DNA of 64,000 nt, taken from assembly GCA_902801795.1 (NCBI GenBank), contig CADCJQ010000005.1, forward strand, positions 4,414 to 68,413, given 5' to 3'. Under the pieces are notes generated by a model. The model saw nothing but the letters and a program-made list of their open reading frames with translations. It did not search any database and was not told where the DNA came from. Both the position numbers and the translations under genes were made by a program. Origin of the DNA: an uncultured Erysipelotrichaceae bacterium. GTDB lineage: Bacteria > Bacillota_I > Bacilli_A > RF39 > UBA660. Of the stretch, positions 1,940-38,151 are shown in pieces (position 1 is the first letter of the stretch; every line of letters starts with the position of its first letter).

Positions 1940-2363
1940 TTAATTCACCTCCTTCATTTCATAACAAAATAAAGAATAAGTATTAGATAATACCTCAATC
2001 TTTACTACTGTATTCTATTTAATTATGTTTACATTGTAATTTTATCATAATATATTATAATTGTAAAGTAATACTTAAGATTCAATTATTAATTCCAATA
2101 TTAGCGATGATTATTTTTGAAAGAAACCACTATTTCCATTAACTAGAATACAGGAGTTAACATATAAATAGGCTATTAAAATATTATTTTCTTGTCCTAA
2201 TACCAAAAATATTATAAACTTTTTTTCTAAAAATATACTTTTATCTTATATTTATTATAAAACATCTAAATATAAGATAAATAATAAAAAAAATAGCAAA
2301 CTTATTAAATAAAAACTCCCAAAATCATAAAATGTGATATACTATATTATATAGGAGGAAAAG

Positions 2364-2609: not shown

Positions 2610-2615
2610 AAAAAT

Positions 2616-2641
2616 TGTTAGAGAAATCTAACATTTTTTTA
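2616..2641 (+). terminator. Rho-independent terminator after the glsB-like gene
   Basis: Stem tgttaga, loop gaaa, stem tctaaca, followed by a T7 run. Confidence 0.6.
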
Positions 2642-2644
2642 TTA

Positions 2645-2671
2645 AAGAAAAACTCTTGTAAAAACAAGAGT
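2645..2671 (-). terminator. Rho-independent terminator after tRNA-Ala
   Basis: On the minus strand: ACTCTTGT, TTTT loop, ACAAGAGT, followed by TTTTCTT. Confidence 0.55.
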
Positions 2672-2684
2672 CTGAATACAAAAA

Positions 2685-2760
2685 TGGTGGAGCATAACGG
2701 GATCGAACCGTTGACCTTCACGGTGCAAACGTGACGCTCTCCCAGCTGAGCTAATGCCCC
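2685..2760 (-). tRNA. tRNA-Ala (anticodon UGC)
   Basis: The reverse complement is GGGGCATTAGCTCAGCTGGGAGAGCGTCACGTTTGCACCGTGAAGGTCAACGGTTCGATCCCGTTATGCTCCACCA. It forms a cloverleaf with the G3:U70 identity pair, anticodon loop TTTGCAC and an encoded CCA. Confidence 0.92.
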
Positions 2761-2830
2761 AATAAATGTTGCTTTTTTCAATCAACATTTAAGATTATAC
2801 ACATTTCTTTTATTAAAGTCAACTATTTTA

Positions 2831-4522
2831 TTACATTTTTTTTAGTAATTTATGATATTCTTGATTATTTTTTATTAAATCTTTATGATTACCTTCTCCA
2901 ATAACTTTACCATAAGCAAAAAAGATAATTTTATCAACATTATTATTTTTTAATATATCAATATTACGACTTACAACAATAATAGTATGTTCATTTTTCA
3001 ATTTAATAAGCATATCAAAAATTTGTTTATGAACAGGACGACTAACATGATCTAAAATATTATTTATTAAAATAATTTTACTTTTTCTTAAAAAGATTCT
3101 TGCAAAAGCTAGTAAATACCTTACATCATTATTAATATTACTAGCATCACTATTTAAAATAGTTTCATAACCATTAGGTAAACTCATAATATATTCATCA
3201 ATTTCCAGTTCTTTACAAATATTAACGATATTTTCAAAATTACTATCAAATATTAATAAATTATCCCGAATGGAAGTATTAAAAAAAGTTGGATATTCCA
3301 TAATAAATCCCATAATATTACTAATATTTTCTCTTGAATAATCATTAATATCAATATTATCAATTAATATCTTACCTGAATGTTCCCTATTATATCTTAA
3401 TAATAAATCAATAATTCCTTCACAAGACTTAGTACTACCAGATAGAATCGTTAAACTATTTTTGGTAATACTAAAATTAACTTCATTTAATAATGGAGAC
3501 ATTTTATTACCATATAAAATATTATTAAAATTAATATTTCCTAAAACGTCATTATTATTATCTTGATCAACTTCATGATTATTAGCGTATTGAAATAACT
3601 TCGTTACACGAATTTCGGATACTTTTTTATTATTAAGACTTTCTGATAAAATAATAATGGAAGTAAATAATTCACTTAACTTCGTATAATAACTATAAAT
3701 AATTGTAATTGTACCAAGTGTCATATTCCCATCCATAATTAATTTAATACCAATAATTAATGATAATATTTTAAAAAAATCTACTATTCCTAAAGTTGTC
3801 TCTCTTAAATTAAAACGATTCATATTAAGTTTAGTATGCCATTTAATATAATCATCAACAATAGTATTAAGTCTTTTTTTAATAACCTTTAAAATATTAA
3901 ATCCTTTAATGGTTTTAACACTTAAAAAGATTTCTTGAAATAAACTTATTCTTTTATCATTTCTTATTTTTCTTTCGGTATTTACAAGAGAAATAAATTT
4001 ATTAAAATAAAATAGTATAAAAATTACAATCATGCTAGAAACTAACGTAATTATTCCTATTAAAGTATTAATGAAAAAGAAATAAATAATTATATAAATA
4101 AACTCTAATATCTCAACAATTCTAATAACTAAAGTACTATAATAATCACTAATCATTTCAAAGTCTTCCGATAAAATATTACTATATTCTGATAAACTAA
4201 ATCTTGATAAACTATATAAGGAATTATTAAAAGTTTTATTAATACCTAAATTCATATATGATTTATATAAAGATAAATATAACCAAAAATATATTTTTTG
4301 ATTAAAGTATTCAATAAAACGATAACTAATTGTTAAAATACCAAAGATAATTGAAAAGAAATAAGCATTGTTAAAGTTAGTTTCAGTTATCGCATCAATT
4401 AAATTACTATAGTAAATAGGAATAACTAGCAATAAAACATTTAGTATAATACTAATAATGAATTTCCAAATAAACTTTCCTTTATGTGAAAATAAGATTT
4501 TTTTATTTTCTTCTTTTGACAT
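2831..4522 (-). CDS. ABC exporter-like protein (6-TM domain plus nucleotide-binding domain) in which every catalytic NBD motif is degenerate
   Basis: 563 aa with type I exporter architecture. Walker A reads LSGSTKSCEG, the signature region DASNINNDVRY, Walker B IILINNILDH, and the H-loop position IIVVSRN. Confidence 0.75.
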   Translation of the reverse strand: MSKEENKKILFSHKGKFIWKFIISIILNVLLLVIPIYYSNLIDAITETNFNNAYFFSIIFGILTISYRFIEYFNQKIYFWLYLSLYKSYMNLGINKTFNNSLYSLSRFSLSEYSNILSEDFEMISDYYSTLVIRIVEILEFIYIIIYFFFINTLIGIITLVSSMIVIFILFYFNKFISLVNTERKIRNDKRISLFQEIFLSVKTIKGFNILKVIKKRLNTIVDDYIKWHTKLNMNRFNLRETTLGIVDFFKILSLIIGIKLIMDGNMTLGTITIIYSYYTKLSELFTSIIILSESLNNKKVSEIRVTKLFQYANNHEVDQDNNNDVLGNINFNNILYGNKMSPLLNEVNFSITKNSLTILSGSTKSCEGIIDLLLRYNREHSGKILIDNIDINDYSRENISNIMGFIMEYPTFFNTSIRDNLLIFDSNFENIVNICKELEIDEYIMSLPNGYETILNSDASNINNDVRYLLAFARIFLRKSKIILINNILDHVSRPVHKQIFDMLIKLKNEHTIIVVSRNIDILKNNNVDKIIFFAYGKVIGEGNHKDLIKNNQEYHKLLKKM

Positions 4523-18738: not shown

Positions 18739-19095
18739 CTATCTATTATTATTGTTATTATTATTGTTATTGTTGTTATTGTTATTCGAAGAACTTCCTC
18801 CAAATGACGAACCACCATTTGATGGTGTATAATGTGGAATTATCTTTAATATAGTATTACTTAATAATAAACCATCAATAGCACTACTAATACATTTACA
18901 GTTAATAACAGAATTTTCTTTTCCATTAATAAGAGCTATACCCTGATTATTACCTTTTATTTGCCCATCTTTATTATTTTTTAAAAACTCATATACTTTA
19001 TCTAATTCTTCTTTGGTTAAATTATAATATTTTGTTAAATCAATACATCTTTTTTTACGTATTAATTCTTCATAAGTTTCTGGTTCTTTATCCAT
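18739..19095 (-). CDS. 118-aa protein with a helical N-terminal region and a C-terminal ...SNGGSSFGGSSS-Asn14-R tail
   Basis: The start overlaps the rSAM stop (ATGGATAA). The tail is encoded by mixed AAT/AAC codons. Confidence 0.6.
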   Translation of the reverse strand: MDKEPETYEELIRKKRCIDLTKYYNLTKEELDKVYEFLKNNKDGQIKGNNQGIALINGKENSVINCKCISSAIDGLLLSNTILKIIPHYTPSNGGSSFGGSSSNNNNNNNNNNNNNNR

Positions 19096-20821
19096 TTTCT
19101 TCCTCCTTTACATAATAAAATTCTATATTTTGAAATGGTAAATTAATTGCTTGAATATGATAAAAAGCATTATTCTTTTGTTTTGTATAATGATAATCTC
19201 TTAATGAAGATGTTGTAAAGAAAATATTATTTAAAGAAGAATATTCATCTTTATATTCTTTTATTAAATTAGATATATCAACTACATAATAATCATCATC
19301 TATATTTTTTTCTAATACGCCTTTATATATTTGATGTGTTGCAACATGTCTTTGTTTATTTCTTTCTTCATCACCATAAGTAATCATATCGCCACTAAGA
19401 ATCATAATATATAAAGAATTATTGTTAGGATAATCACAAACTTCATTTATTAAATGCTTTTTCATATATATCTTAACAACACTTTTATCACCAATATAAA
19501 TAATATCTCGAGTTTTTTTTAATATTTGCGATTCTAAAAAATGTTTTACACTGTCTATTTCTAAAATAAAAGAATTCGAATCATAAATATATTTTAAATT
19601 CTCGTCTTTTATGATAATACTTTCTAAAGATGGATATTCATTATTAACTTTATTTGGAATATAATTACTAACGTCTTCTAAACGCATCTTATTAACATAT
19701 TGATAAACACTTTCTTCATTAAAATTATCTTTTAAATATCCTCTATCCAAGTACATTTCTTTTTGTAACTTACAAGTATAACTTTTATTAGAATGATAAT
19801 TATTCTTTACAAACGGACATCCTGTTTTGCATAAATATAAATATCCACATTTAATACATTCATCATTTAATTTCTCTTTATTATGATTAAGAAAAATTTT
19901 TTGAAAGGCTGTATTAAGTATTTCAGAAACTGTATTTTGATAAATATTACCATAATAGTAATCTTTATTTTTTTGTCCTCTAACACAAGAATAAATATCA
20001 CCATTTTTCTCTAATAAGAAAAATTTTTCACCGCAGTTATCGCAATTAGAACAATATGTTGGTCCAAATTCATCAAACCAAGGACCATTCACCCCATAAT
20101 CTAAATCCGTTCCATCAAATTCTTTGTGCATTCTCTTATAAAAAGCAACTTGTTCTTCTTCGTTCATATGATGAAGAATACCATTAGAATTATAATCAAA
20201 GCCAATCATAAAATTAAAATCATTCATGTCAAGACAAGTATTTTTATGCAGATATTTAATATCTTCAATAATTTCATCTATTTTATCATAATGTTCTTTA
20301 AAAATTGTTGCTGATACTTTCTTTTTATTCGGAATATCTTCTAATAGTTTAATATTATCTAAAATCTTTTCTAATGTTTTTTGATTACCTTTTGTTACCC
20401 TATAAGTATTATGTAATGAAAATGGCAAATCCAGACTACCTGATATAGAAACATTAAATTTTTTTATTGTATCTAAGTGTTTTTCTATATTATATAAGTT
20501 TGTTTTAATATGTACATTTCCAACTTTAAAACCATTAGCCTTAATAACATCCTTATTTTGATTATAATAATTATCTATATATTCAACAATTTCATAAAAT
20601 TCATTTTTAGATAATGTGGTAACCTCACCTCCATGAAGTGATATATTAAATGGCATAACATTACTTTTATGAAATTTATCAACAGCATATTTTAACGTAT
20701 CAATTGCTTTATATTTTTGATATTCATCTTTAGTGTTATCTTCTAGATAACAATATTTACATGCCATATTACAATTCATTGTAGGAACATATAATAAATG
20801 TATAAATTTTGTTTCAACCAT
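19088..20821 (-). CDS. Radical SAM/SPASM-domain enzyme with a ~200-aa C-terminal extension of unknown function
   Basis: CNMACKYCY (CxxxCxxC) near the N-terminus. SPASM-type cysteines are CSNCDNCGEKF...SC and CIKCGYLYLCKTGCP (Cx2Cx5Cx3C). I place the start at MVETKF (ATG 20821), which follows AGGGGA and lies 13 nt after the upstream stop. The track start at 20881 would overlap the upstream gene. Confidence 0.85.
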   Translation of the reverse strand: MVETKFIHLLYVPTMNCNMACKYCYLEDNTKDEYQKYKAIDTLKYAVDKFHKSNVMPFNISLHGGEVTTLSKNEFYEIVEYIDNYYNQNKDVIKANGFKVGNVHIKTNLYNIEKHLDTIKKFNVSISGSLDLPFSLHNTYRVTKGNQKTLEKILDNIKLLEDIPNKKKVSATIFKEHYDKIDEIIEDIKYLHKNTCLDMNDFNFMIGFDYNSNGILHHMNEEEQVAFYKRMHKEFDGTDLDYGVNGPWFDEFGPTYCSNCDNCGEKFFLLEKNGDIYSCVRGQKNKDYYYGNIYQNTVSEILNTAFQKIFLNHNKEKLNDECIKCGYLYLCKTGCPFVKNNYHSNKSYTCKLQKEMYLDRGYLKDNFNEESVYQYVNKMRLEDVSNYIPNKVNNEYPSLESIIIKDENLKYIYDSNSFILEIDSVKHFLESQILKKTRDIIYIGDKSVVKIYMKKHLINEVCDYPNNNSLYIMILSGDMITYGDEERNKQRHVATHQIYKGVLEKNIDDDYYVVDISNLIKEYKDEYSSLNNIFFTTSSLRDYHYTKQKNNAFYHIQAINLPFQNIEFYYVKEEENG

Positions 20822-20834
20822 AACTTTTCCCCTA

Positions 20835-22448
20835 TTAATAATACTCAATATATGTTGGACTTTCTTTAAATGCACGTTCATTTATGATAACATCTCGAGG
20901 TAATGTAATCGTTTCTAAACTATCACATCCCCTAAATGCCGATGATCCAATTTCTTTTAATAAACTATCACTTGGAATTGCAACTTCTTTTAAAGATATA
21001 TCTCCATAAAATGCATGAGCTGCAATTCTAGTTACATTCTTAGGAATATTAATCGATTTTAGTGATATGCAATTTTCAAATGTATTACCTCTAATTTCTG
21101 TTATTCCAGAAGGAATATTAATAAATTCTAAACTTGTGGCATTATAAAATGATTCTCCTCCTAAATATGTTAAAGTGCTCGGTAATTCCACCTTTTTTAT
21201 TGACGAGCAATTTTCAAATGCACCGCCACCTAAATATTGTAAATTCTTTGGAAGACGTACTTCCTTTAAACTAACATCATTGTAAAATGCTTCACCACGA
21301 ATTTCTCTAATTGAATCTGGCAATGTTACACTTTGTAATAAAAACATATTAGAAAAAGCGTTTCCTCTTAAACTTATTACACGTTCTCCTTTATATGTTT
21401 CAGGAATAGAAACAGTTTTAAAATTGCTTAACCCAAAGACATAATAACGAACAGCATAACCTCCATCTACTTTTTCATATAATATTCGAGGTTTAATAAA
21501 TAATAGCAACGACAAAACAATAGCTACCAATATACCACTAAGTTTTAAAACAATTAAATTATTTTCAACCAAAGAATTTTTAGTATTCATAACAATATTA
21601 CTAATCTTTTCATTTGGTCTTGCCTTAACTTCTTTTTTTAAATATTTTAATAAATCATATTTTTTAGTAATTTTAGAAAATATGATTAAAATAATCAATC
21701 CTATTAAATAAGTTAATATTGGAAAATGAAAAAATATCATAGTTAGATAAACAAAAACCAAAAATGAAAAAATAATTGTTAATATTCTTTTTCTTTTTAT
21801 AACTTCTGAAGGAATAAGTTTTTTGCTTAAATCAATACCAGCCTTTGTCATTTCTTTCTTTAAAAATTCTTCTAATAATAAATCTTCAGAATTACTATAT
21901 ATTGAATCATAATCACTGCTTTTGGCAAAAGTAACTGGAATTACTTTGACATTATCATTTTCAAAAGGCGCCCCACATTTAGAACAAACTTTATCATTTA
22001 CGTCTAAAGTATTTCCACAATAAGTACATTTTAAGGTAACTCGATTATCATTTGCATCTTTAATTGTATTACTTTTTAATTTATTTAAATTACTACCAAA
22101 AGGTGATTTTTTGGTTATTAATGCCGTAATTGGGACAATAACAAATGCTCCAATAAAAACTAATCCAAAATCAAAAAAAGCTATTGATGTAGTTACAAAG
22201 AAATCAAAAAATAATAATATTCCTACTCTTATACCAAACATTATCCAGAATAATCTCTTCGAATTATCTTTAGCTAACATTTCCGAAAGAGGTTTTAAAA
22301 CAAAAACAGACATATGAATGGATACAAAAGCTTCCATCATTATTGCCCCTAAAACACCAATTGATGAACCTTCTAAAGAAGAGCTTGCATTAACAATTTG
22401 AGGGATAAACATTAAAAATCCAATTAAAAAATACTTTATTTTTTTCAT
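20835..22448 (-). CDS. Polytopic membrane protein with an internal zinc ribbon and a C-terminal BspA-type leucine-rich repeat (LRR_5-like) domain
   Basis: Signal/TM segments, CTYCGN...CSKCGA, then repeats of the pattern IP..V..I...AF..C.SL (for example NCSSIKKVELPSTLTYLGGESFYNATSLEFINIPSGITEIRGNTFENCISLKSINIP). Confidence 0.7.
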   Translation of the reverse strand: MKKIKYFLIGFLMFIPQIVNASSSLEGSSIGVLGAIMMEAFVSIHMSVFVLKPLSEMLAKDNSKRLFWIMFGIRVGILLFFDFFVTTSIAFFDFGLVFIGAFVIVPITALITKKSPFGSNLNKLKSNTIKDANDNRVTLKCTYCGNTLDVNDKVCSKCGAPFENDNVKVIPVTFAKSSDYDSIYSNSEDLLLEEFLKKEMTKAGIDLSKKLIPSEVIKRKRILTIIFSFLVFVYLTMIFFHFPILTYLIGLIILIIFSKITKKYDLLKYLKKEVKARPNEKISNIVMNTKNSLVENNLIVLKLSGILVAIVLSLLLFIKPRILYEKVDGGYAVRYYVFGLSNFKTVSIPETYKGERVISLRGNAFSNMFLLQSVTLPDSIREIRGEAFYNDVSLKEVRLPKNLQYLGGGAFENCSSIKKVELPSTLTYLGGESFYNATSLEFINIPSGITEIRGNTFENCISLKSINIPKNVTRIAAHAFYGDISLKEVAIPSDSLLKEIGSSAFRGCDSLETITLPRDVIINERAFKESPTYIEYY

Positions 22449-22527: not shown

Positions 22528-25500
22528 CTATATTTTTTTATATTTACTATCTATAATTGAATATAAATAAAGATTAACTTTTTTAGAAGATATTTTACTT
22601 ATGTAATCACGATAACCAGATAGTTGCTTTATATAGGCTTCATCATCAATATTTTTTAATTTATAATCAATAATATCAATATAATCAGGATATTCTAGCA
22701 TTAAGTCAATAACTCCATTTTTTTCCTCTTCTAAATTATTATCAATAAATTCATATTCTTGATATACTTTAGCCTCTTGAATATTCTTCATTAATTCACT
22801 ATTCATCAATTCTTTAATTTTTATGACATATTCTTCTTCAATTCCATCATAATTAGGTTCATGAAAATCCATTGTTTCTAAATAATAATGTATTTTAGTA
22901 CCAAAGTCCATTACTTCTTTTTGGTTTTTATCAATTAAATGAACATTACTTTTTGAAAAATGACTTTTCTCTTTTTCACATTTCGTTATTTTAGGATAAT
23001 TTACTAAATTTATTTTTTGATTACTCTTTTTCATATTATTAAATAAATTATTACCATTAATTAAATTATAATCTTTGGTTAAATTTAAAGTATTTACATC
23101 TATTTCTTTAATATAAGTATTAACCTTTGATTTAATAGATTCTAAGATATCAGAAAAACAACGATACCCTTCTCTTACAGAACTATCTACAAGACCATCA
23201 TTATCATATATTTCATCTTTATCTTTTAACGGAAGAATAAAAATCATTTTTTCTTTCGCTCTTGTTAAGGCAACATAAAATAACCTTATTTTCTCACTTA
23301 TCTCTTCTTGTAAATATTTCTTTTTAAATAATTCACGATAAATAGTACTTCCTATTCCTTCATCAAAAAATGGTGTAATAATACCTAATTCATTATCAAA
23401 AATAATACGATCTTTTAAATCACTATCATTAAATTTCTTAGTTAAACCAGGGAAATAACAAATATGATATTCAAGTCCCTTTGATTTATGAATCGTCATT
23501 ATTTTAACACTATTACCATCTTCTTTATTTAATGGAAAAGTTATATTAGTTCCACTATCAAAAATGTTATTTAAGAAATCAACAAAATGAGTATAATCAT
23601 ATCCCATACTATTTAATGTTTCTGATAAAGTATATAGGTATTCTACTTTAACTAAATTTTCATTAAGAGAAGATATCTTTCTTAATTTATTATAAATATC
23701 AAATTTATTAATGATTTCATCTAATATCATTGATATTGTTTTTTCCGAAACATTAGTTGATATATCACGAATAATTTTAAATATATCTGTTTCTTCATAA
23801 CTATTATTTCTTATTACATCAAATAAATAATTATCATTTAAATCACATAAAAAACTTCTTCCAATGGATAAAAAACAATACTCTATTTCTTGTTTATTAC
23901 CATTATTACTTAATAAATTAATTAAACGAAAGATATTCTTAATAACTAAAAATAAATTACTATTCGTTAAATATTCATCTTTATAAATACTTAAAGGAAT
24001 ATGCTTGTAAAGAAAGATTTTTTTATATAATTCAAACGTTGTACTTCGATCTATTAAAATTGAAAAATCATTATAAGTAATATCTCTTAATATTTTATTA
24101 TCTTTATCAAATACTTGATAATGAGAACTTATCTTTTTATTAATATCATCTGCAATAATAAAAGCTTCGATTTCATCTTTATCAAAACCTATTTCTTTAT
24201 CATACAAATAATTATATATTTCAAAATCATTATTTTGGGAGGTTTTACCTTCTTCATTATAAGTAATATTACCAAAATTCATTCGATGTGATTTAATATA
24301 ATCTGCTCCTCCAATACTATCACTCATAATATAATCAAAGATTAAATTAATATTATTTAATACTTCTTCACGAGATCGAAAATTCTTTAATAAATCTATT
24401 TTCATTCCACCATTATTCTTTTCATAATTATTATATTTTTCACGAAAGATATTCGGGTTAGCATTACGAAAACGATAAATAGATTGTTTAACATCACCAA
24501 CCATATACAAGTCATCATTACAAATAAGTGATATAAAAGCTTCTTGCAAATCAGAAGTATCTTGGTATTCATCAACTAATATTTCTAAAAAATAATTTTT
24601 TATTTCATCACGAATATTATTGTTTTCCATAACTACTTTAATAGCCATTTTACTAATATCAACAAAGTCATATAAATCATTTTCATGTTTATAAAATTCT
24701 ATTTCACTATCTAATTTATTAATAATATCAATGATAGTCTCAACATAAGGTTTAGTCATTAAGATATTATTTTTTATTTCATCAATACTTGCAAAAGAAG
24801 TTAAACTCTTTATTTCATCTAAAACCCCTTTTAAATCATCCTTTGTTTTTTTAGTAAATTCATCACTTCCTCTTGGAAGATTAGGAAGTCTTGTAATATT
24901 ATCAACACCTGTTTTTATATCAAGATAATTATCACTATTAATTAAGCTATTACACATATCCATTAGTTTAGTAAAATAATCGGTATCTACCATATCACCT
25001 AGTTTATATAAAGTAATATCAAATAATTTAACCTTACTTTTAAGTAATTCTTCATATTGTTTTACTTTATCCATAATGTATTCTTCACTATAATATTTTT
25101 CAAGATAATTATCTAAGTATTCTTTCTTATCATATTTCATATTAAGTTTATTATTTAAATTTAAGATAGATGCTTTAATATCATCATCATCTTTAATACA
25201 AAAATCATTAATAAGTTTACAAAAATTATCATCTTTTTCTTGATACTTTTCTTCCATAACTTCATCTAAATATTCTTGTGTTTTAATATTTAATACATTA
25301 TTTTCGATAATATTAACATTCTTTTTAACATTTAATAAATAATGATATTTCTTAACTATCGATAAAGAATAACTATCAAAGGTTGTTATATAACTATTAT
25401 CTAATTTATTTAATTGTTCAACTAAATTATTTTTTTTTATTTTCTTCCTTATTCTTTCTTTCATTTCAGCGGCAGCGGCTTTCGTAAAAGTAAGTATTAA

Positions 25501-25650
25501 TAATCTATCCACATCCGTTCCATGCATAACTTTTTCTAATACACGTTCGGACAATACTGCTGTTTTACCACTACCGGCTCCTGCAGATACAATTATATTT
25601 TTTCCACATTCATAAATTGCACTTTCTTGTTCTTTGGTCCAACTTGGCAT
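22528..25650 (-). CDS. addA: ATP-dependent helicase/nuclease subunit A (AddA/RexA)
   Basis: UvrD-like N-terminus (WTKEQESAIYECGKNIIVSAGAGSGKTAVLSERV), the VDEYQDT motif, and a C-terminal PD-(D/E)xK region (GVIDLMLEY...IIDYK). Confidence 0.9.
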   Translation of the reverse strand: MPSWTKEQESAIYECGKNIIVSAGAGSGKTAVLSERVLEKVMHGTDVDRLLILTFTKAAAAEMKERIRKKIKKNNLVEQLNKLDNSYITTFDSYSLSIVKKYHYLLNVKKNVNIIENNVLNIKTQEYLDEVMEEKYQEKDDNFCKLINDFCIKDDDDIKASILNLNNKLNMKYDKKEYLDNYLEKYYSEEYIMDKVKQYEELLKSKVKLFDITLYKLGDMVDTDYFTKLMDMCNSLINSDNYLDIKTGVDNITRLPNLPRGSDEFTKKTKDDLKGVLDEIKSLTSFASIDEIKNNILMTKPYVETIIDIINKLDSEIEFYKHENDLYDFVDISKMAIKVVMENNNIRDEIKNYFLEILVDEYQDTSDLQEAFISLICNDDLYMVGDVKQSIYRFRNANPNIFREKYNNYEKNNGGMKIDLLKNFRSREEVLNNINLIFDYIMSDSIGGADYIKSHRMNFGNITYNEEGKTSQNNDFEIYNYLYDKEIGFDKDEIEAFIIADDINKKISSHYQVFDKDNKILRDITYNDFSILIDRSTTFELYKKIFLYKHIPLSIYKDEYLTNSNLFLVIKNIFRLINLLSNNGNKQEIEYCFLSIGRSFLCDLNDNYLFDVIRNNSYEETDIFKIIRDISTNVSEKTISMILDEIINKFDIYNKLRKISSLNENLVKVEYLYTLSETLNSMGYDYTHFVDFLNNIFDSGTNITFPLNKEDGNSVKIMTIHKSKGLEYHICYFPGLTKKFNDSDLKDRIIFDNELGIITPFFDEGIGSTIYRELFKKKYLQEEISEKIRLFYVALTRAKEKMIFILPLKDKDEIYDNDGLVDSSVREGYRCFSDILESIKSKVNTYIKEIDVNTLNLTKDYNLINGNNLFNNMKKSNQKINLVNYPKITKCEKEKSHFSKSNVHLIDKNQKEVMDFGTKIHYYLETMDFHEPNYDGIEEEYVIKIKELMNSELMKNIQEAKVYQEYEFIDNNLEEEKNGVIDLMLEYPDYIDIIDYKLKNIDDEAYIKQLSGYRDYISKISSKKVNLYLYSIIDSKYKKI

Positions 25651-25747
25651 AACATCACCTTCTTTTATATCTTATCATAAAATGATATTTTTTTATTAAA
25701 AAACTTTTGTCACTATTAATAACAAAAGTTTATATTAATACATTAAT

Positions 25748-27751
25748 TTATTTAATTACATAAGGTTTACTTGCAGTTCCATCGGCATCATTATCAACGA
25801 TTGTAATGCCATTTTTAAGGGATAAAACTGGACGAAGACCACGACTCTTATTTACAATGCCATAATAAATAGCTCCATTTAGTGTAGAAAAGTCTGCGGA
25901 ATTATTAACACTAGTAAAATTGTAAGGCGACATCAACCAATAATCTGTTCCATTATTCAAATAGCTTATCACCGAACCTAAAACACCTCCACCAGATAAA
26001 ATCATTTCATCTGAAGATAATAATGCTACCGGATAATCTAAAGCTCCATTTCCTTTGCCATTTTTAATTGTAAAAGCATCATTTTTTCTACAAGATAAAC
26101 TCGGCCTTTTTATCACATTTTGTCTTTCATATCCAGAATAATATACAGTACTATTACTTATTCCTATCATTCCATCATTTGGATTTAATCCACCTAAAGA
26201 ATATATACTTCTATCATTACAAAATAATGTATCTTCTAATTTGTTTTCATAACTAGTATTATCAATATTATCCTCATACCAAGAATCTATCATTTTTTTT
26301 GCATTAGAATCATTATTGTTTTCTTGCATTTCTTTTAGTGCATCTTCAATGCTTTTTCCATTAATTAATGTAAAGTACAGATAATATTGTTTTCCGTTTC
26401 TTGTACCATACGCATAATAGTATCTTATATTTTCGCAAGTTCCATCAGTTGTTGTTAAATTGCATGTATAGTGATGATTATAATCTATCCATTCTTTAAC
26501 ATTTGTTAATGTATATAAATTATTGGTACTATCATAAATAAAACTATTACCAAAATATGCACTATCTTCTGCCTCTCCATTTGTTACCTCATACACGCTT
26601 CCATACATATAGCCAACATATGCTGGTGAATTAGCATTTTCGTTAAATGCAAATGTATTTACATCTGTTCCATCGATATTCAATGTTATTTGAGAATCAG
26701 TTCCTGTATTATCGCAATCTGGTACTTCACTTGTTCCTTTATTTTCGCCATTATATATTAATTTAACACCACCAGTATCGGTTGTTCTTACCATCTTCCA
26801 ACATTTATTAGCAAATAATACATTATTGTTTTCTACTGCTCCTCGATAATACATTACTGGATATGCATCATTTGATGTACTACTAAATGTATATACTCCT
26901 TTTCCATTGGTATCACTTGATATATTACTAAAATCTATTCCTGGCGTTGTATTATTTACGTATGTACTATTAATATTATCCATTACTGTTTGTCTTTCTA
27001 CTACATCATATAATGTTTCTTCTACCCAGATATCTTCATTTGCTTCTACTTTTACTTGGAATGATATTCCATTTTGTTGTAAAGAATTCCATTCATCAGT
27101 TGTTAATACTACTCTTCCATCTACCCAATCATTAGTTGTTCCCATTAAATCTGTTTCATTTCCATCATAGGTATCTGATATGGCTATTTTATTTTTATCT
27201 AAATAAGCTTTAATGGTTATTTTTCCATTTATCCCACTTGGTGTTCCTAAGGTAGTATTCTGTGGTATATATCCTACTAAGATATTACCATCTCCCATAA
27301 TACCATTACCTGATAATCTTTTATATATTTTAGTATCTTTACTTTCTCTTTCTTCAAAATAATTATTTTCATACGTTCCAAGTCCTTCAACACTTATATC
27401 TAAACTTATCGGTACTATTTGACCTGTTGATGTTGTAACATGAGAGTTTACTGCTGATACTAAATATTCAATACCACCTACATAATCAGTATCTCCTTCT
27501 ACTTCTATTTCAAATGTTCCAACTTTAGTTGTATCATTCATTATTCCTGTTTCTGTTGGATCTATTGGAAATAAATTAGTTAAATTAATTGTTTCTGTTT
27601 GTCTTGAAATAAAACTTATTCTTCCTGTCTTAATTACATTAGCTTCCCCTGTTCTTGTATAATTAAAGAATGCATACGTTACACTACCTACTGTTAATAT
27701 TAACGTAAATATTGTTATTACTAATAACATTTGTTTTTTACTTTTTATCAT
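25748..27751 (-). CDS. Secreted large protein: SipW-cognate-like signal, conserved N-terminal module, and a C-terminal domain ending in a YWLMSP...RGLRPVLSL motif
   Basis: N-terminus MIKSKKQMLLVITIFTLILTVGSVTYAFFNYTRTGEANVIKTGRISF. It is paralogous to 28024..29930 and, in the N-terminal module only, to 44911..48078. Confidence 0.75.
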   Translation of the reverse strand: MIKSKKQMLLVITIFTLILTVGSVTYAFFNYTRTGEANVIKTGRISFISRQTETINLTNLFPIDPTETGIMNDTTKVGTFEIEVEGDTDYVGGIEYLVSAVNSHVTTSTGQIVPISLDISVEGLGTYENNYFEERESKDTKIYKRLSGNGIMGDGNILVGYIPQNTTLGTPSGINGKITIKAYLDKNKIAISDTYDGNETDLMGTTNDWVDGRVVLTTDEWNSLQQNGISFQVKVEANEDIWVEETLYDVVERQTVMDNINSTYVNNTTPGIDFSNISSDTNGKGVYTFSSTSNDAYPVMYYRGAVENNNVLFANKCWKMVRTTDTGGVKLIYNGENKGTSEVPDCDNTGTDSQITLNIDGTDVNTFAFNENANSPAYVGYMYGSVYEVTNGEAEDSAYFGNSFIYDSTNNLYTLTNVKEWIDYNHHYTCNLTTTDGTCENIRYYYAYGTRNGKQYYLYFTLINGKSIEDALKEMQENNNDSNAKKMIDSWYEDNIDNTSYENKLEDTLFCNDRSIYSLGGLNPNDGMIGISNSTVYYSGYERQNVIKRPSLSCRKNDAFTIKNGKGNGALDYPVALLSSDEMILSGGGVLGSVISYLNNGTDYWLMSPYNFTSVNNSADFSTLNGAIYYGIVNKSRGLRPVLSLKNGITIVDNDADGTASKPYVIK

Positions 27752-27804
27752 TTTTACTATCTCCTTTTCTTAATTAATTATTATCTTATATAATCATATA
27801 TCAT

Positions 27805-27854
27805 CAACTATCATTATAAAAAAGGATTACAACTATCATTATAAAAAAGGATTA
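27805..27854. repeat. Perfect tandem duplication of a 25-bp unit (caactatcattataaaaaaggatta x2)
   Basis: Read directly from the sequence. On the minus strand each unit reads TAATCCTTTTTTATAATGATAGTTG and contains a TATAAT box. It lies 54-103 nt upstream of ATG 27751. Confidence 0.9.
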
Positions 27855-27871
27855 ATGGTCTATAAAAATGA

Positions 27872-27881
27872 CCCCCCCCCC
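27872..27881. repeat. C10 (G10 on the coding strand) homopolymer in the promoter region
   Basis: Ten consecutive C counted at 27872..27881. This stands out in such an AT-rich sequence. Confidence 0.9.
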
Positions 27882-28023
27882 AATATTAGTATTAGTTAAC
27901 ATTGCTACCTCCTATTTTTATACTATAATCTTAGCACAGTTTTTAATGGTTGTAAATAATGAAATTATAAAAATGATATGAATATTACCAATCAATATTC
28001 ATATCATATTTTAATAAATAACT

Positions 28024-29930
28024 TTATTTAATTACATAAGGTTTACTTACTGTTCCATCTGCATCATTATCAACTATTGTAGTGCCATTTTTTAGGGATA
28101 AAACTGGACGAAGCCCCCTATTATTCACCAAATTATCACTATATATTGATCCATTCGACAAAATTCTATTCATATAAGACATTCGATCAAAGCTTCGGGG
28201 TGACATTAGATAATAACTTGTCCCAATTGATAAGTAATATGACTCATTCGTCGTATTTTTTTTTCCTCCTGCTAATATTGCTTCATCATCTATCAATAAT
28301 GCTATAGGATAATTCAACATTCCATTTCCTCTTCCGTTTGTCAAAGTAAAAGCATCATTTCTTCGACAATAAAAATTAGGTTTAAATTTCAACGCATCTT
28401 TTGAATAAATTAATACTGCACCTGAGCTAGCATTACCTGCATAACCTCCATTTGGATTTAATCCTCCTAATTGATAAATGCTTCTATCATTACAATATAT
28501 AGTATCTTCTATTCGATTATCAAAATCAGTATTATCAATATTTTCTGCATACCATCTTTCAATTTTATCTTTAGCATTTGAATTAATTATATTTAATTGC
28601 ATTTCGTCTATCGCATCTTTTATACTTTTTCCATCAGATAAAGTAAAATACTCTAGTCCCCAAAAATAATATCTTATACTTAAACATGTTCCATTGCTTG
28701 TTGTTTCATTGCAAGTATAGTGGTGAAATTCATCTATACCTACTTTTGCATCTGTCAATGTATATAAATTGTTAATGTTATCGTATGTATATCCACTTCC
28801 AAAGTATACATTATTTGCTGGTGCTCCAATATTCGTGTCATAAATAGCCCCATACATATACCCATTATATGCTGGTGAATTATTCTTTACATTAAAAGCA
28901 AATTTGTTTGTTTCTGTTCCGTCTATGTTTAATGTCATTAATGTTTCTTCACCAGTATTATCACAATTAGGTGCTTCTTCTGTTCCTTTGTTTTCTCCAT
29001 TATAAATTAATTTAACACCACCTGTATCTGTCGTTCTTACCATTTTCCAACATTTATTGGCAAACAAGACATTATTGTTTTCTACTGCTCCTCTATAATA
29101 CATTACTGGATAGGCATCATTCGCAGTACTACTGAAGGTATATACTCCTTTTCCATTAGTATCACTTGATATATTACTAAAATCTATTCCTGGTGTTGTA
29201 TTATTTACAAAAGTACTATTAATATTATCCATTACTGTTTGTCTTTCAATAATATCATAAAGTGTTTCTTCTACCCATAATCCTTCATTAGCTTCAACTT
29301 TTACTTGAAAACTGATTCCATTTTGTTGTAATGCATTCCATTCTTCTGTTGTTAAATTAACTCTTCCATTTACCCATTCATTCGTTGTTCCCATTAAATC
29401 TGTTTCATTTCCATCATAGGTATCTGATATTGCTATTTTATTTTTATCTAAATATGCTTTAATAGTTATTTTTCCATTTACTCCATTTGCTGTTCCTAAA
29501 GTAGTATTTTGTGGTATATATCCTACTAAGATATTACCATCTCCCATAATTCCATTACCTGATAATCTTTTATATATTTTAGTATCTTTACTTTCTCTTG
29601 CAGTAAAATAATTAGTGTTTTGAGTACCTAATCCTTCTACTGTTACATCTAAGCTTATTGGTACTATTTGACCTGTTGATGTTGTAAGATGAGAGTTTAC
29701 TGCTGATACTAAATATTCAATACCACCTACATAATCAGTATCTCCTTCTACTAATTTGTTAAATTAATTGTTTCTGTTTGCCTTGTTATAAAATTAATTC
29801 TTCCTACTTTTAATGTATTTGCTACTCCTGTTCTTGTATAATTAAAGAAGGCATACGTAATGCTACCTACTGTTAATATTAACGTAAATATTGTTATTAC
29901 TAATAACATTTGTTTTTTACTTTTTATCAT
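28024..29930 (-). pseudogene. Disrupted paralog of 25748..27751 (about 70-nt deletion and frameshift after the signal peptide)
   Basis: ATG 29930 gives MIKSKKQMLLVITIFTLILTVGSITYAFFNYTRTGVANTLKVGRINFITRQTETINLTN then stop. The next frame resumes VEGDTDYVGGIEYLVSAVN... and joins track ORF 28024..29547. Confidence 0.7.
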
Positions 29931-29995
29931 TTTGATTCTCCATATTTTTATAAATTAATACTATCATATTTTGGAATTAAAGTAAATATTTTTTA

Positions 29996-32356
29996 TTATT
30001 CTTCGATTAATTCCTCATCTTCATCTTGTTCCGAATCACTTGTTAAATAAACTTTATTCTTTTCTTCCATATAACAAATATCTTTAAATTCACAATATTT
30101 ACAAGATTCATTTTTTCCTTTAATTATTTTAGGATTAATACTAAAGTCTCCTTCTAAAATATTATTCATCGCATTAATTATTTTATCTTCGGTAATCTTT
30201 AAAATACTATTTATGGCTTCATCACTTAGTGGATGAGCAGAACTACCTAAATTACCATCTTTATTGACTTTCATTCCTTTAATCATTTCACTATTTTCAT
30301 AAGTTGCATCAAATACTTCTAGTCTTTCCATATTATCAGAACTATATCCAACTAATTTTAAATTATCATATTTTTGATCAAGATAACTTTTTTTACCTTT
30401 TTTAATATTTATATTTAAAATATGTTGTAAGTAAAAACCTGTAAACTTCATATTATTTAAAAGATTACTATTATTAACTAAATATAAATATATTGGTAAC
30501 TGCATGGATAAACCAAATTCTAAATTATCAATTTTAATATCAGGATTACCTGTTTTATAATCAATTATACTTACTAATGTTTCCCCATTTTTTTCTTTAT
30601 ACATTATTTTATCGACAAATCCTTTAAAATGAACATAAGGACTATTCTTTAATGTAATATCTATCTTTTCTTCATATAACATTTTATTAAAACCTGTAAT
30701 AAACTGATGTTTTTTTATTACTTCAATAACGTAGGCTAAATCATTTTTTAATTTATTTAAAAAGAATGTTTCTTTATTACTAAATACACGATCTTTTAAA
30801 AATAATTCATATCTTTTATCTAAATCAAAGTCATCATCATTCATATGTCTTAATACATCATGAAATAAATTACCAATAATAGTCATAAAGGTTTCTTCAA
30901 AAATATTAATCTTTAAAATATTACTTAAATAATATTTAAAACCACATTTATAGTAATTATCAATACTACTATAAGATAATGTTAATTCATTATTTAGGTA
31001 ATTAATTAAATTATCTTTATTTATTCCACTAAACTCATTATCATAACTTAAATAATCATTTTCACCATAATTATCATATAACATATCCATATTATTGTTT
31101 TTAATACCAAATTTAACATAATCATCTAAATATGTTGTATATAAGTTTTTATTAGACATTTCAGAATAATTAAAACTTCTTTGATATTCTTTTTCTTCAT
31201 AATCCATATCATCTAATAAAATACTAGGATAATATGAATTAAAGGATGATGTTTCTTTATAGGAAATAGTTAAGTTATTAATACTACTTAGATAATTTAA
31301 AGTATTTTCTTTACTTAATTTATTAATATCACTAACGAAAGGTAAACCAACTAAATCTTTAATATTATCTGTGATATATTCCGTATCTAACATTAATCTT
31401 GGAATACTAGGATTATTAAAACCAACTAAGAAAATATATTCATCATCACCAACATAATCAAAAACATTTTTTATTTTAATGGTATTATCATAGTTTTTAC
31501 TACTTACTTTAGTATTTAATAAATCATACTTTATTAACTCTTTAATATCTTTTAAATCAAAATCATGATATTTATTTAAAAGATTAATTAATATTCCATA
31601 AAGATTATTATCTTGGTAATTATCTAAAAAAGAATTTATTTCTTCCATACTTTTTTCTTCAATAATCATTTGATAAAATTTATTACCAATAACTGTTCCT
31701 AAGATATTATCAGTATTATTTATAGAAAGAGGAATTTGGTAGTAAATAGAATATTTTTTTAATAAGGTATTATATTCACTATCTATATTCATTAAACTAA
31801 TTTTATTAATATCAATACCTTTATTTAGTAAATCAATTATTTGTTGAAAAACCATTTCTACTTCATCATTAATATTTTTTATATTATAGATAGTAAATTT
31901 ATCATTTTTCTTTTCATAATTAATTATTTGAGGTTCATTAAATAAACTTAGTTTCCATTTGTCTAAATTACCATAACCATAAATAACTACTTGATATTTC
32001 TTTAATGTTTTAGAAAATAATTTATCATAAATAAGTAAATGATTATCATCTAATTCTTTTTTTAATTTTACTAAATAATCTAGTTTTTCATTATGATATT
32101 CTTTATCTTCAATATATAATAAATTATCTAAAAAAGTAATGGCATTATCAACTTTCATTCCTTTTTTTACTAAATAATTAATAGTTTTAATATCATAATC
32201 AAATTTTATTTTTTTAATGTATTCTTCCATTGTCATAAACTTAAGAACAAGAAGTTTTTTATTATTACTTAAGTAATTTAAAATAGCTTTCTTATAACTA
32301 TTAGGACATATAATTAATAAATTATTTTTAAGAAATTCAAACATCATTATCACCAT
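29996..32356 (-). CDS. addB: ATP-dependent helicase/nuclease subunit B (AddB/RexB)
   Basis: 786 aa. The C-terminal nuclease has four Fe-S cluster cysteines (CGFKYY... and CKYCEFKDIC) and an IIDYKTG motif. Walker A is degenerate. The true start may be the MMFEF ATGs 9-12 nt downstream of the track start. Confidence 0.85.
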   Translation of the reverse strand: MVIMMFEFLKNNLLIICPNSYKKAILNYLSNNKKLLVLKFMTMEEYIKKIKFDYDIKTINYLVKKGMKVDNAITFLDNLLYIEDKEYHNEKLDYLVKLKKELDDNHLLIYDKLFSKTLKKYQVVIYGYGNLDKWKLSLFNEPQIINYEKKNDKFTIYNIKNINDEVEMVFQQIIDLLNKGIDINKISLMNIDSEYNTLLKKYSIYYQIPLSINNTDNILGTVIGNKFYQMIIEEKSMEEINSFLDNYQDNNLYGILINLLNKYHDFDLKDIKELIKYDLLNTKVSSKNYDNTIKIKNVFDYVGDDEYIFLVGFNNPSIPRLMLDTEYITDNIKDLVGLPFVSDINKLSKENTLNYLSSINNLTISYKETSSFNSYYPSILLDDMDYEEKEYQRSFNYSEMSNKNLYTTYLDDYVKFGIKNNNMDMLYDNYGENDYLSYDNEFSGINKDNLINYLNNELTLSYSSIDNYYKCGFKYYLSNILKINIFEETFMTIIGNLFHDVLRHMNDDDFDLDKRYELFLKDRVFSNKETFFLNKLKNDLAYVIEVIKKHQFITGFNKMLYEEKIDITLKNSPYVHFKGFVDKIMYKEKNGETLVSIIDYKTGNPDIKIDNLEFGLSMQLPIYLYLVNNSNLLNNMKFTGFYLQHILNINIKKGKKSYLDQKYDNLKLVGYSSDNMERLEVFDATYENSEMIKGMKVNKDGNLGSSAHPLSDEAINSILKITEDKIINAMNNILEGDFSINPKIIKGKNESCKYCEFKDICYMEEKNKVYLTSDSEQDEDEELIEE

Positions 32357-36030: not shown

Positions 36031-38151
36031 CTAATCTTTCTTTTTAAAACAATAACTATAGAGAATAAATCCGGTTCCTGCAACTGCTAAAAAGGCAACA
36101 GCAATATAAATGATTTTACTAACATCAAAATCTGTTTTTGGAACTTCGGTAATTGGTTCATGACACTCATCTTGATTAACACCACTAACAAGGCTATATG
36201 CACTATCTTTTTCGTATTTTCCCCAAACATATTTACCTGTTGATATATTCTTGTAACATGCTTCTACTTCCTTTTTAACACAATTAGTTTCAACATCAAT
36301 TGAATCAACTACTTTATAATCATCTGATGGTGGTAGTGCATCCCACTTATAGTCATCATCTTTTGAACTATAATAACAGAATGGCTGACATTTATCCTTG
36401 GAATTAATTTGAGTAATTTCAACTAATTCTGGAATTGTTATTTCTGATTTTCTTTGCCATATATATTCTTTTTTATTATTATCATAGTAGCAGACATCCT
36501 TACAATAATTCACAGAAGAAACACCTTGAACTATTTTATATCCAGTTTTTGGAGAATTAGTCCAATCATATTCTCCTGTACTACTATTGTAATAACATGC
36601 TTCTTCTTTTTCATTTTTTATTGATAAATATGCACTCCTTGTGGCTGACGTTGATCTATTATATAAATTGCTTGCATTTGCTATTGTCATTGTACCTGTA
36701 CTAGATACTGTTACAGTAATTTCCGTTTGATTTAATTTATAACCTGTTGGTGCTTCTATCTCTTTTAGTTTATATGTTCCTGGACTCAATTTTGATAATG
36801 AAAAACCAAACCCTATACCTTTTGTTTCATTATAATTATTTGGTCCTGTAATTTTTATTTTGGCGCCTGTTAAAAAAGCTCCTTTCTCATCAACTTTTAA
36901 TATAGTCAATACATTACATTGTGCTTCTTGTGTATTAGCAACTAGAGTATAATTTGAATTACCTTCATATTTCCCCCAGACATATTTTGCTATTTCACCA
37001 TCTCCTGTTTTTTCTTGATAACATGCTGGAACTTCTTCTAATTTATTCTTTATTGATAAGTATGCATTAATTGTTGGTGTTGTTGATTTTTCATATAAAT
37101 TGCTTGCGTTTGAAACAGTTATTTCTCCAGTATTTGATACAGTCACTTTAATTTCCGTTTGATCTAATATATAACCTGTTGGTGCTACTGTTTCTTTAAT
37201 ATAATATTCACCAGATTCTAAGAATTCTTGTGTATATGGTATTACACCAGTATAAATTGATGTTCCATTTTTTGTTATTGTTACTTTCGCACCTGTTTTT
37301 TCAGTACCATTTTCATCAACCTTTTTTATATACAATCTATTACATTCTGATTGTTGTTTATTCTCTACTAAAGTATAATTCGAATCGCCTTCATATTTCC
37401 CCCACACATATTCAACTATTCCTCCTGGTGCTGTTAACTTTTTATAGCATGCTGGTTCTTCCATTTTTGTGTTTTTTATTGATAAAGTAAGATTATTCGT
37501 AGCTGACACTGATTCACCACTTACCGATATTTCCCCGTCAGGATTTACAAACAATCCAATTGATGTATTATTATTTTCATAACCCGTTGGTGCAACAGTT
37601 TCTACTATTGTATAATTACCAGGAACCAAATTATATAATGCAACACTTCCTATCGTCGCATTTCTACTATAGTTTGGTCCCGTTATTGTTATTGTTGCTC
37701 CACTTAATAAAGTATTCTTATTTTGGCTATCTACTTTTTTTATAATCAAACTATTACATTGTCCATGCGGTATACTTTCTTCTTTAGTATATCCAGGAAC
37801 ACCGTAATAATTCCCCCATTTATAAATTTTCGTACCGCTAGTTGTAGTAGCACTATAACATGCTTCTTCAACAACAGGATTATCAGGATTACAATCATCA
37901 CAACAATCGCTAAGATTAGGAAGTTGATGCATACCATCTGGACAACTGGTTAATCCAGTAGTCGCTTGTGAAATCATTTCTTTATTTGTACCGTCAGTGC
38001 AACATCCAAGCCATTGATTTTGACCACCATCTTCTGTCCAACATTGATCATCATTATCAGCAACTTTTATTTCTGAATGATAATTATTATTAAACCTTAA
38101 TCCTATAAAAACACTTATAAAGAAAATCATTACCAAAACATACTTTTTCAT
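36031..38151 (-). CDS. Cell-surface protein: three SpaA/Cna-B-like prealbumin-fold domains interleaved with seven Cys-bracketed modules, plus a C-terminal anchor
   Basis: Repeats of the form KKVD..G..L.GA.I.ITGPN...PG.Y.I.E..APTGY...T. Modules of the form (A)CY...Y.WGKYEG.SNYTLV....(E/Q)CN. The tail is VPKTDFDVSKIIYIAVAFLAVAGTGFILYSYCFKKKD. Confidence 0.75.
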   Translation of the reverse strand: MKKYVLVMIFFISVFIGLRFNNNYHSEIKVADNDDQCWTEDGGQNQWLGCCTDGTNKEMISQATTGLTSCPDGMHQLPNLSDCCDDCNPDNPVVEEACYSATTTSGTKIYKWGNYYGVPGYTKEESIPHGQCNSLIIKKVDSQNKNTLLSGATITITGPNYSRNATIGSVALYNLVPGNYTIVETVAPTGYENNNTSIGLFVNPDGEISVSGESVSATNNLTLSIKNTKMEEPACYKKLTAPGGIVEYVWGKYEGDSNYTLVENKQQSECNRLYIKKVDENGTEKTGAKVTITKNGTSIYTGVIPYTQEFLESGEYYIKETVAPTGYILDQTEIKVTVSNTGEITVSNASNLYEKSTTPTINAYLSIKNKLEEVPACYQEKTGDGEIAKYVWGKYEGNSNYTLVANTQEAQCNVLTILKVDEKGAFLTGAKIKITGPNNYNETKGIGFGFSLSKLSPGTYKLKEIEAPTGYKLNQTEITVTVSSTGTMTIANASNLYNRSTSATRSAYLSIKNEKEEACYYNSSTGEYDWTNSPKTGYKIVQGVSSVNYCKDVCYYDNNKKEYIWQRKSEITIPELVEITQINSKDKCQPFCYYSSKDDDYKWDALPPSDDYKVVDSIDVETNCVKKEVEACYKNISTGKYVWGKYEKDSAYSLVSGVNQDECHEPITEVPKTDFDVSKIIYIAVAFLAVAGTGFILYSYCFKKKD

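Follow-up and report, generated by a model that had tools for sequence, protein, structure and literature searches.

A G homopolymer and a 25-bp unit in a conserved 5' leader of predicted surface-protein genes from rumen and gut Bacilli: a candidate phase-variable leader ORF

A run of ten G and a duplicated, TATAAT-containing 25-bp unit lie upstream of a predicted surface-protein gene in the 64-kb stretch of DNA analysed here (the window), which raises the question of whether these elements switch the gene, and at which step of its expression they would act. In well-known cases of homopolymer phase variation, the tract interrupts either the spacer of a promoter or the reading frame of the gene itself. 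The first-pass annotation had compared the tract with phase-variation tracts in promoters or 5' regions and had proposed that changes in tract length or in repeat copy number could switch or tune expression.

The homopolymer was present exactly as described, as C10 on the plus strand (G10 on the coding strand), and its end lies 120 nt upstream of ATG 27751, in line with the earlier figure of about 120 nt. The perfect 25-bp tandem duplication was likewise recovered, with TAATCCTTTTTTATAATGATAGTTG occurring twice, head to tail (27854..27830 and 27829..27805), and the downstream gene was intact, as annotated (27751..25748, 667 aa). In coding-strand (minus) order, the region reads ...AGGAGGTAGCAATGTTAACTAATACTAATATT-G10-TCATTTTTATAGACCAT-(TAATCCTTTTTTATAATGATAGTTG)x2-ATGATATATG...AAAAGGAGATAGTAAAA-ATG, and comprises the following features:

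27872..27881, minus strand: G10 homopolymer (C10 on the plus strand), read from the sequence and matched by homologous tracts in relatives
27830..27854, minus strand: copy 1 of the 25-bp unit (TAATCCTTTTTTATAATGATAGTTG), the conserved 3' end of the leader module, with TATAAT at 27843..27838
27805..27829, minus strand: copy 2 of the 25-bp unit, a duplication private to the window genome and absent from the near-identical strain L001
25748..27751, minus strand: family gene of 667 aa, with an N-terminal hydrophobic helix (residues 5-29), an FFNYTRTG motif, a beta-rich body and a variable C-terminal half
28024..29929, minus strand: upstream paralog, leaderless, with its own promoter (TTTACT-17-TAGTAT) before the SD and a 70-bp deletion at 29752/29753

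The G10 was the only G/C homopolymer of at least 8 nt in the window (runner-up = 7), whose overall GC is 25.3%, and the three overlapping G8 windows observed compare with 0.06 ± 0.34 expected from dinucleotide-preserving shuffles. As the same tract with the same flanks was found in independent assemblies from several projects and several assemblers (MEGAHIT, SPAdes, Stewart-scaffold and JGI assemblies, with identical tracts), a sequencing or assembly artefact was rejected. The tract shares with simple-sequence repeat (SSR) contingency loci a G/C run of slip-capable length (7-8 or more), over-represented for the composition. Such loci affect surface or host-interaction genes from a repeat in the promoter, the 5' region or the ORF, and the present tract occupies the 5' leader and uORF of a gene whose product is predicted to lie at the surface. 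According to Tandem Repeats Finder (TRF), the duplication (period 25, 2.0 copies, 100% matches, score 100) was the best-scoring and only perfect tandem repeat in the window; a degenerate 15-bp tandem array of about 8 copies (CAATCACAAT-like) was also detected by TRF at 58882..59027.

The gene order on the minus strand is an addB-like nuclease gene (32356..29996), a family paralog (from 29929), the 667-aa paralog (27751..25748) and an addA-like helicase gene (25650..22528). addB and addA genes are normally adjacent, and both family genes are inserted between the addB-like and addA-like genes (22528..32356). Owing to the 70-bp deletion, the reading frame that starts at ATG 29929 ends after about 60 codons and the upstream paralog is a pseudogene in the window; it is intact (658 aa) in L001, an ENA contig which also carries G10 and encodes an identical 667-aa protein. 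Over 10 kb, three differences separated the window from L001: the 70-bp deletion, one SNP and the copy number of the 25-bp unit. The missing 70 bp are lacking on the window side and lie in the upstream paralog, and of the three differences, only the SNP falls outside the pair that affects the two family genes or their control region, namely the deletion and the duplicated 25-bp unit. Elsewhere in the window, predicted surface proteins are encoded at 36031..38151 (SpaA/prealbumin-fold repeats and a C-terminal membrane segment) and at 20835..22448 (BspA-type LRR, zinc-ribbon and membrane segments), and a 118-aa ORF ending in 14 Asn adjoins a 597-aa ORF with a CxxxCxxC (radical-SAM-like) motif (18739..20881), which may form a peptide-modification pair.

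The 667-aa protein belongs to an unnamed family of more than 2,700 relatives with a conserved N-terminus (FFNYTRTG...VGRI.F). Against species-representative genomes, the N-terminal profile retrieved 52 loci (L006-L057), nearly all from a few rumen/gut MAGs. These MAGs bore the labels Erysipelotrichaceae, Bacilli or 'Clostridia', and single ones encoded 20 or more paralogs. No domain or family in Pfam and NCBIfam was matched by the family protein. Its AlphaFold model was confident (pLDDT 86.9, pTM 0.84), showing the N-terminal helix 5-29 followed by beta-rich domains, and comparison of this model with PDB folds returned nothing at E ≤ 1e-3. Alleles were 90-100% identical across the first ~350 residues and 42-58% identical in the C-terminal half, and one leader-bearing member had the same N-terminus joined to a BspA/DUF285 leucine-rich-repeat surface-protein body. 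Based on the N-terminal helix, the beta-rich domains, the variable C-terminal half and the BspA/DUF285 member, a surface or secreted role is predicted as likely for the family, which is also predicted to be extracellular and is structurally unmatched. In the L005 locus, a signal peptidase I gene (68..577; TIGR02227, E = 3e-45) lies directly upstream of the leader-bearing family gene.

Both the G10 tract and the 25-bp unit belong to a single conserved 5' leader module. On the coding strand, the module follows the terminator of the preceding gene and opens with a sigma-70-type promoter (P1). Some 25 nt further on, a strong SD and an ATG start a short upstream ORF (uORF) with the tract inside it; a conserved block ending in the 25-bp unit comes next, and the SD and ATG of the surface-protein-family gene close the arrangement. 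In the window, its elements are:

27968..28013, minus strand: terminator-like AT-rich hairpin beyond the end of the upstream paralog's reading frame, with a 15-bp perfect stem followed by UUUUUAU
27928..27956, minus strand: promoter P1, with -35 TTTACA (27956..27951), a 17-nt spacer and an extended -10 TGcTAAGAT (hexamer 27933..27928)
27908..27913, minus strand: SD AGGAGG of the uORF, 5 nt before the uORF ATG
27852..27902, minus strand: uORF of 16 codons (MLTNTNIGGGVIFIDH, then stop), with the tract as codons 8-11 and the stop TAA at 27854..27852
27861..27871, minus strand: right flank of the tract, conserved in the family as TCAYTWTTAWAGAC and reading TCATTTTTATA here, including the -35-like TTTATA (27866..27861) of a second candidate promoter, P2
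27761..27767, minus strand: SD AAAGGAG of the main gene, with predicted pairing to the 25-bp unit in the window lineage

The terminator-like hairpin (-15.9 kcal/mol, z = -3.6) was matched in stability by none of 200 shuffles, and had been overlooked by the consensus scan, its stem being without G-C pairs. The P1 layout (TTTACA/TTGAAA-17-TAnnAT, often with TGn) was found in all ten compared leaders, 25-35 nt before the uORF ATG, with 4-5 of 6 positions matching in the -35, a spacer of exactly 17 nt and 4-5 of 6 positions matching in the -10, while in leaderless relatives the homologous promoter sits directly before the gene; the window's own leaderless paralog likewise has a promoter of this type immediately before its SD. 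In the window, the uORF begins with AGGAGG and ATG 27902, twenty-five nt downstream of P1, and P1 ends 46 nt upstream of the tract. Every leader possessed a homologous uORF enclosing the tract, with lengths of 16-24 codons, and in the window the uORF stop TAA forms the first three bases of the 25-bp unit. As P1 is conserved in every lineage and precedes the tract, the latter is most likely transcribed.

The origin of the uORF was approached through a leaderless locus (L063), which aligned twice with a leader-bearing one (L058): its promoter and 5' UTR matched as far as the uORF ATG, and its UTR and CDS matched again at the main ATG. This double alignment indicates that ~125 nt were inserted to form the leader, with a copy of the initiation region on either side, and that the uORF starts at a copy of a genuine gene start (L008-type locus). 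From the position of P1 and this copied gene start, we infer that the uORF is translated. Resemblances such as 'GGVT' and 'FLNY' had suggested the leader as a decayed 5' end of a family gene, which was rejected as an nhmmer search with a profile built from the 5' ends of 56 family genes gave no match, and the uORF peptides were rejected as remnants of the family N-terminus, their scores against the N-terminal profile being no better than those of shuffles. The uORF was also rejected as a conserved small protein, with two database entries only and with differences between L055 and L065 that were mostly nonsynonymous and included a new stop; purifying selection on the peptide was not supported in this comparison.

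Among relatives, the leader is conserved across several MAG lineages and linked exclusively to the family, of which it precedes only a minority of paralogs in rumen/gut Bacilli MAGs. L002, L003 and L004, whose genes are 74-81% identical to that of the window (L004 having a different upstream gene), were base-for-base identical to the window from the uORF SD through G10, over one 25-bp unit and over the first ~140 nt of the CDS. L005, from a JGI metagenome, possessed a much more divergent family gene and kept the promoter layout and an identical uORF with G10; its unit was slightly changed (TAATCCCTTTCTATAATGATAGTTG), and similarity to the window ceased after the unit. G runs were found at the same position upstream of family genes in L008 (G9), L028 (G8), L040 (G10), L049 (G6) and L055 (G7). 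These leaders aligned with that of the window at 65% mean identity, with an invariant G core, which was the most conserved feature, and the right flank TCAYTWTTAWAGAC; the homologous counterpart of the 25-bp unit in other lineages was TATCCCTATAGAATAAGAGATTC. The leader profile search matched only loci having a G run and, conversely, all G runs of at least 8 nt in the 66 fetched loci and the window belonged to the leader element, on the coding strand. The first-pass reading was supported in that the tract is non-random, conserved and tied to surface-protein-family genes.

A second copy of the leader was observed in L067 (545..765), comprising the promoter, the uORF, G10 and TCATTTTTATAAAAAAATAA and running into unrelated sequence with a possible start MTETNKSEWNSNFAFM. 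This copy was without the 25-bp unit, so that either the module's 5' half may exist independently of it or the scaffold was mis-joined. An association with phages was rejected, the single viral-contig match being a chance G6 in an unrelated phage contig of higher GC.

The tract was G10 in L001, L003, L004, L005, L067, L040 and L064, G9 in L008 and L058-L062, G8 in L028 and L065, G7 in L055 and G6 in L049. The comparisons within and between loci were distributed as follows:

Window-type leader within one locus: six readings, each G10
L008-type locus: five assemblies spanning two alleles, each G9
L040 locus, same locus: G10 in 2 assemblies
Different leaders (paralogs, species): tract lengths of 6, 7, 8, 9 and 10
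L028 and L049 leaders: the only indel is the tract, G8 versus T+G6
L055 and L065: G7 versus G8 through an A-to-G substitution, not slippage

Same-locus readings were invariant in 13/13 cases at three orthologous loci, all in consensus assemblies, where sub-consensus heterogeneity could be hidden. Between leaders, two frames were found after the tract, frame A ('V-I-I-K-D') in the window (G10), L008 (G9) and L049 (G6), and frame B ('G-H-Y-stop') in L028 (G8) and L040 (G10). The L028 and L049 loci (1144..3955 and 1164..3946, respectively) are syntenic and 91% identical over 2.8 kb upstream, with leaders ~97% identical. Of the tract-length changes proposed in the first-pass annotation, repeated single-nt changes in evolution (6-10) were thus found, but none among same-locus assemblies (13/13). 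The tract is an indel hotspot on evolutionary time, and its constant length among same-locus assemblies gives no direct sign of high-frequency switching. Two independent assemblies broke exactly inside the G tract (L002, 1..9; L067, 775..790), which fits low coverage, tract heterogeneity or the leader being a multi-copy repeat.

The change in repeat copy number was seen as two copies in the window versus one in L001 and five other assemblies, the unit being single-copy in all six related assemblies (L001-L005 and L067). As L001 is near-identical and yet possesses the unit once, the duplication is recent and polymorphic. De Bruijn assemblers usually collapse repeats and do not create them, and the duplication was on this ground taken as real. 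By comparison with the relatives, it is a recent, strain-private copy of the 3' unit of the module.

The tentatively preferred explanation of these data, possible and no more firmly held than that, is a slippage-prone tract in a translated leader ORF that would act after transcription. The tract would be transcribed and translated as part of the uORF, and a slipped-strand gain or loss of one G would put the uORF into another frame with its stop codon at a different place; the moved stop would alter the travel of ribosomes over the leader and, as a result, the translation or stability of the downstream mRNA. The tract would in this manner be a contingency element acting after transcription initiation, and not a promoter-spacer switch. 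Such a phase-variable leader ORF is made plausible by the outlier status of the tract, its exclusive leader position and the fixed distance from P1 to the uORF, as well as by the two uORF frames, the tract-only indel between L028 and L049 and the uninterrupted tract despite 65% identity. The variable family of at least 20 paralogs, the assembly breaks at the tract and the polymorphic duplication are also plausibly explained by it. Against it stand the 13/13 invariance, the L055/L065 substitution, the unconserved sequestration of the SD and the unsupported hairpins. Moreover, in the window the uORF stop would lie 108, 100 and 62 nt before the main ATG for G9, G10 and G11, respectively, and a fusion of the uORF to the main ORF was rejected, all three frames stopping at least 50 nt before the main ATG. 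As every frame ends well short of this ATG and translation of the main gene can start from a strong SD of its own, an effect of the frame on expression is not evident from the sequence.

A route by which uORF translation could affect the main gene was predicted for the window lineage, where the right flank of the tract (27861..27871) is complementary to the main gene's start region and the 25-bp unit contains UCCUUUUUU, complementary to the main SD. MFE folding of this type of leader paired UCAUUUUUAUA, immediately downstream of the tract, with the main start region, and UCCUUUUUU with the main SD. For a single-copy leader, the predicted unpaired probability of the main TIR was 0.19 when free and 0.98 with the uORF masked as ribosome-occupied. 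With the duplication, these values were 0.24 and 0.59, opening being limited to 0.59 as the second copy is still able to pair with the main SD. The second copy would offer extra sequence to pair the main SD and would lower the opening of the main RBS during uORF translation, and damped expression would be expected from the duplication. In other lineages, this SD-sequestering structure was absent and the TIR was already open (0.42-0.80). Sequestration of the SD/AUG by the unit and the right flank, found only in the window lineage, was accordingly rejected as a conserved mechanism and kept as a lineage-specific prediction.

A G-run:pyrimidine hairpin (GGUC..GACC plus CCC/CCUUUUUU) recurred in MFE folds and was also rejected as a conserved structure, with -1.6 kcal/mol in RNAalifold, no compensatory changes and disruption in L065 and L067, the latter being without the GACC arm. 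Local G-run folds in 8 leaders were no better than those of dinucleotide shuffles (z -0.3 to -1.7), and a 5'-UTR SSR hairpin of the hmw type was not found in these 8 leaders. The 16-codon uORF with AGGAGG constitutes a short upstream leader ORF with its own RBS, as in ermC-type attenuators, while conserved alternative sequester and release structures were not found and covariation was absent. Rfam returned only tRNAs at gathering thresholds, and only chance-level matches at E ≤ 10 within 27700..28060.

A fixed leader element without a switch, that is, a constitutive cis-element in which each locus keeps the tract at whatever length it has (6 to 10), is somewhat unlikely. Such an element could be a 5'-proximal ribosome-binding or stalling mRNA stabiliser (with three rare GGG) or a protein or RNA binding site. 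It would account for the invariance of the tract in 13/13 same-locus readings, even between alleles several SNPs apart, and it agrees with the strong SD near the predicted 5' end and with the at least two Gly codons encoded by all leaders in any frame. GGG is a rare codon (5.6% of Gly codons), and ribosomes could be slowed by three consecutive ones, which is speculation. However, changes of ±1 nt in frame are tolerated between orthologous leaders and would disrupt a frame-dependent function, the uORF peptide is not conserved, and RNA structure involving the tract is without statistical support. Nor does a fixed element explain the retention, at 25% GC, of an unbroken G run instead of just any sequence that is G-rich or encodes Gly.

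An extension of the phase-variable leader ORF, in which slippage would toggle the uORF frame at a few leader-marked expression sites while recombination would swap the family bodies, combining SSR switching with cassette-like antigenic variation, is unlikely. Beyond their shared leader, L028 and L049 possessed unrelated family gene bodies, and identical window-type leaders preceded proteins that were 74-81% identical. Both observations suggest leader-marked 'expression sites' with recombining gene bodies.

Phase variation at the promoter level is quite improbable. Poly-G and poly-C tracts near promoters tune expression in Treponema and Bordetella, and in this reading P2 (TTTATA 27866..27861, 17 nt, TATAAT 27843..27838 within the 25-bp unit) would drive the gene. 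The tract, ending 5 nt upstream of the P2 -35, would tune an UP-element or activator site, the direct repeats 5' of the tract would be the candidate activator site, and the duplication would add a second TATAAT. P2 scores 10/12 in the window lineage, the TATAAT/TAGAAT box is kept in the homologous unit of all lineages, and short direct repeats immediately abut the 5' side of the tract (ACTAATACTAAT at 27885..27896 in the window; TGTCAA-N4-TGTCAA in L008, L028 and L049); these may mark the binding site of a protein or arise by chance from the coding sequence of the uORF. A promoter role of the TATAAT noted in the first-pass annotation was retained for the window lineage, where TTTATA-17-TATAAT makes a good promoter, but not elsewhere, the -35 of this box matching at only 2-3 of 6 positions in other lineages, without TGn. 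The distance from tract to box also varies (23 to 35 nt), and promoter-like matches in the region were not enriched (13 versus 7.6 ± 3.1 in shuffles). As the stronger and universally conserved P1 lies upstream with no terminator between, P2 is not needed. Contrary to a promoter-level picture, no -35/-10 pair brackets it and no promoter-like pair spans it, as a promoter-spacer SSR switch (repeat between -35 and -10) entails; it lies outside this spacer, within the 16-codon uORF downstream of P1. Judged from this arrangement, the likely site of action is the translated leader ORF rather than the promoter.

Finally, a neutral relic, i.e. a functionless scar of an old insertion or duplication at the initiation region, spread among paralogs by recombination, is very improbable: although the leader is bracketed by a duplicated initiation region, is nucleotide-identical before diverged gene bodies, as recent recombination predicts, and yielded no mechanism on analysis, an uninterrupted G6-G10 survives at ~65% leader identity despite the strong AT bias, and a leader with a decayed tract was never found by the leader profile search.

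A conserved tract located in a leader ORF apart from the gene would depart from the layout of the known homopolymer switches, and literature searches brought up no example of a homopolymer within an upstream ORF or a leader peptide. Should the phase-variable leader ORF be a true switch, commensal uncultured rumen/gut Bacilli would be shown to use contingency loci for a surface-protein family of very large size. The combination of promoter, uORF, at least six G and TCAYTWTTAWAGAC would then serve as a signature for finding such genes in metagenomes, and the leader would offer a compact model for a uORF frame controlling a downstream gene in Firmicutes-like bacteria. If there is no switch, the leader is still a new conserved cis-element, upstream of a new and structurally unmatched extracellular protein family.

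Among known systems, leader-peptide attenuation of the ermC/cat type and 5' stabiliser SD elements are established in Firmicutes. With the ermC type, the present leader shares a short leader ORF with its own SD and, in the window lineage, the predicted sequestration of the main SD/AUG with release on uORF occupancy, but it differs in having no conserved alternative structures across lineages and no known inducer; to our knowledge, a tract of the hypermutable type is not a feature of ermC/cat-type leaders. In the Mycoplasma vlp system (M. hyorhinis), a poly-A lies between -35 and -10, and promoter-spacer switches also operate in Neisseria porA/opc. The likeness to vlp consists in a low-GC lineage related to Bacilli/Mollicutes, a large variable surface family and a homopolymer upstream of individual genes, whereas the tract described here lies outside the -35/-10 spacer and the proteins are unrelated.

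In Neisseria, Campylobacter and Haemophilus, intragenic poly-G/C tracts lie in the gene's own ORF, and a frameshift truncates the protein. The present tract resembles these loci as a G/C tract of at least 8 nt in a reading frame, in which ±1 shifts the frame, with a surface link and as a compositional outlier, but it lies in a separate uORF of 16-24 codons and the main ORF is untouched. Poly-G/C contingency loci are treated in general terms in PMC7864442.

Haemophilus influenzae hmw1A possesses a transcribed 7-nt repeat in the 5' UTR that forms a long hairpin with a G-rich arm, and this hairpin is processed by RNase III (PMC12721329). Both systems have a simple-sequence repeat in the 5' UTR upstream of an adhesin-type gene and act post-transcriptionally (as proposed here), while the present repeat is a mononucleotide tract within a uORF, without a significant hairpin. 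In Treponema pallidum (tpr/tp0126/tprL), a poly-G tract within the promoter modulates transcription, with the start mapped experimentally (PMC7864442, references 15 and 16 therein). The two systems have in common a G tract of about 7 to 11 upstream of paralogous outer-surface protein genes. In tprL, most molecules have 9 G, while 7-11 coexist (PMC7864442); one length dominates each T. pallidum isolate with others coexisting, whereas here a single length was read per locus in the consensus assemblies. The leader described here differs from that of T. pallidum in that a conserved promoter lies upstream of the tract and the tract itself lies inside a short ORF.
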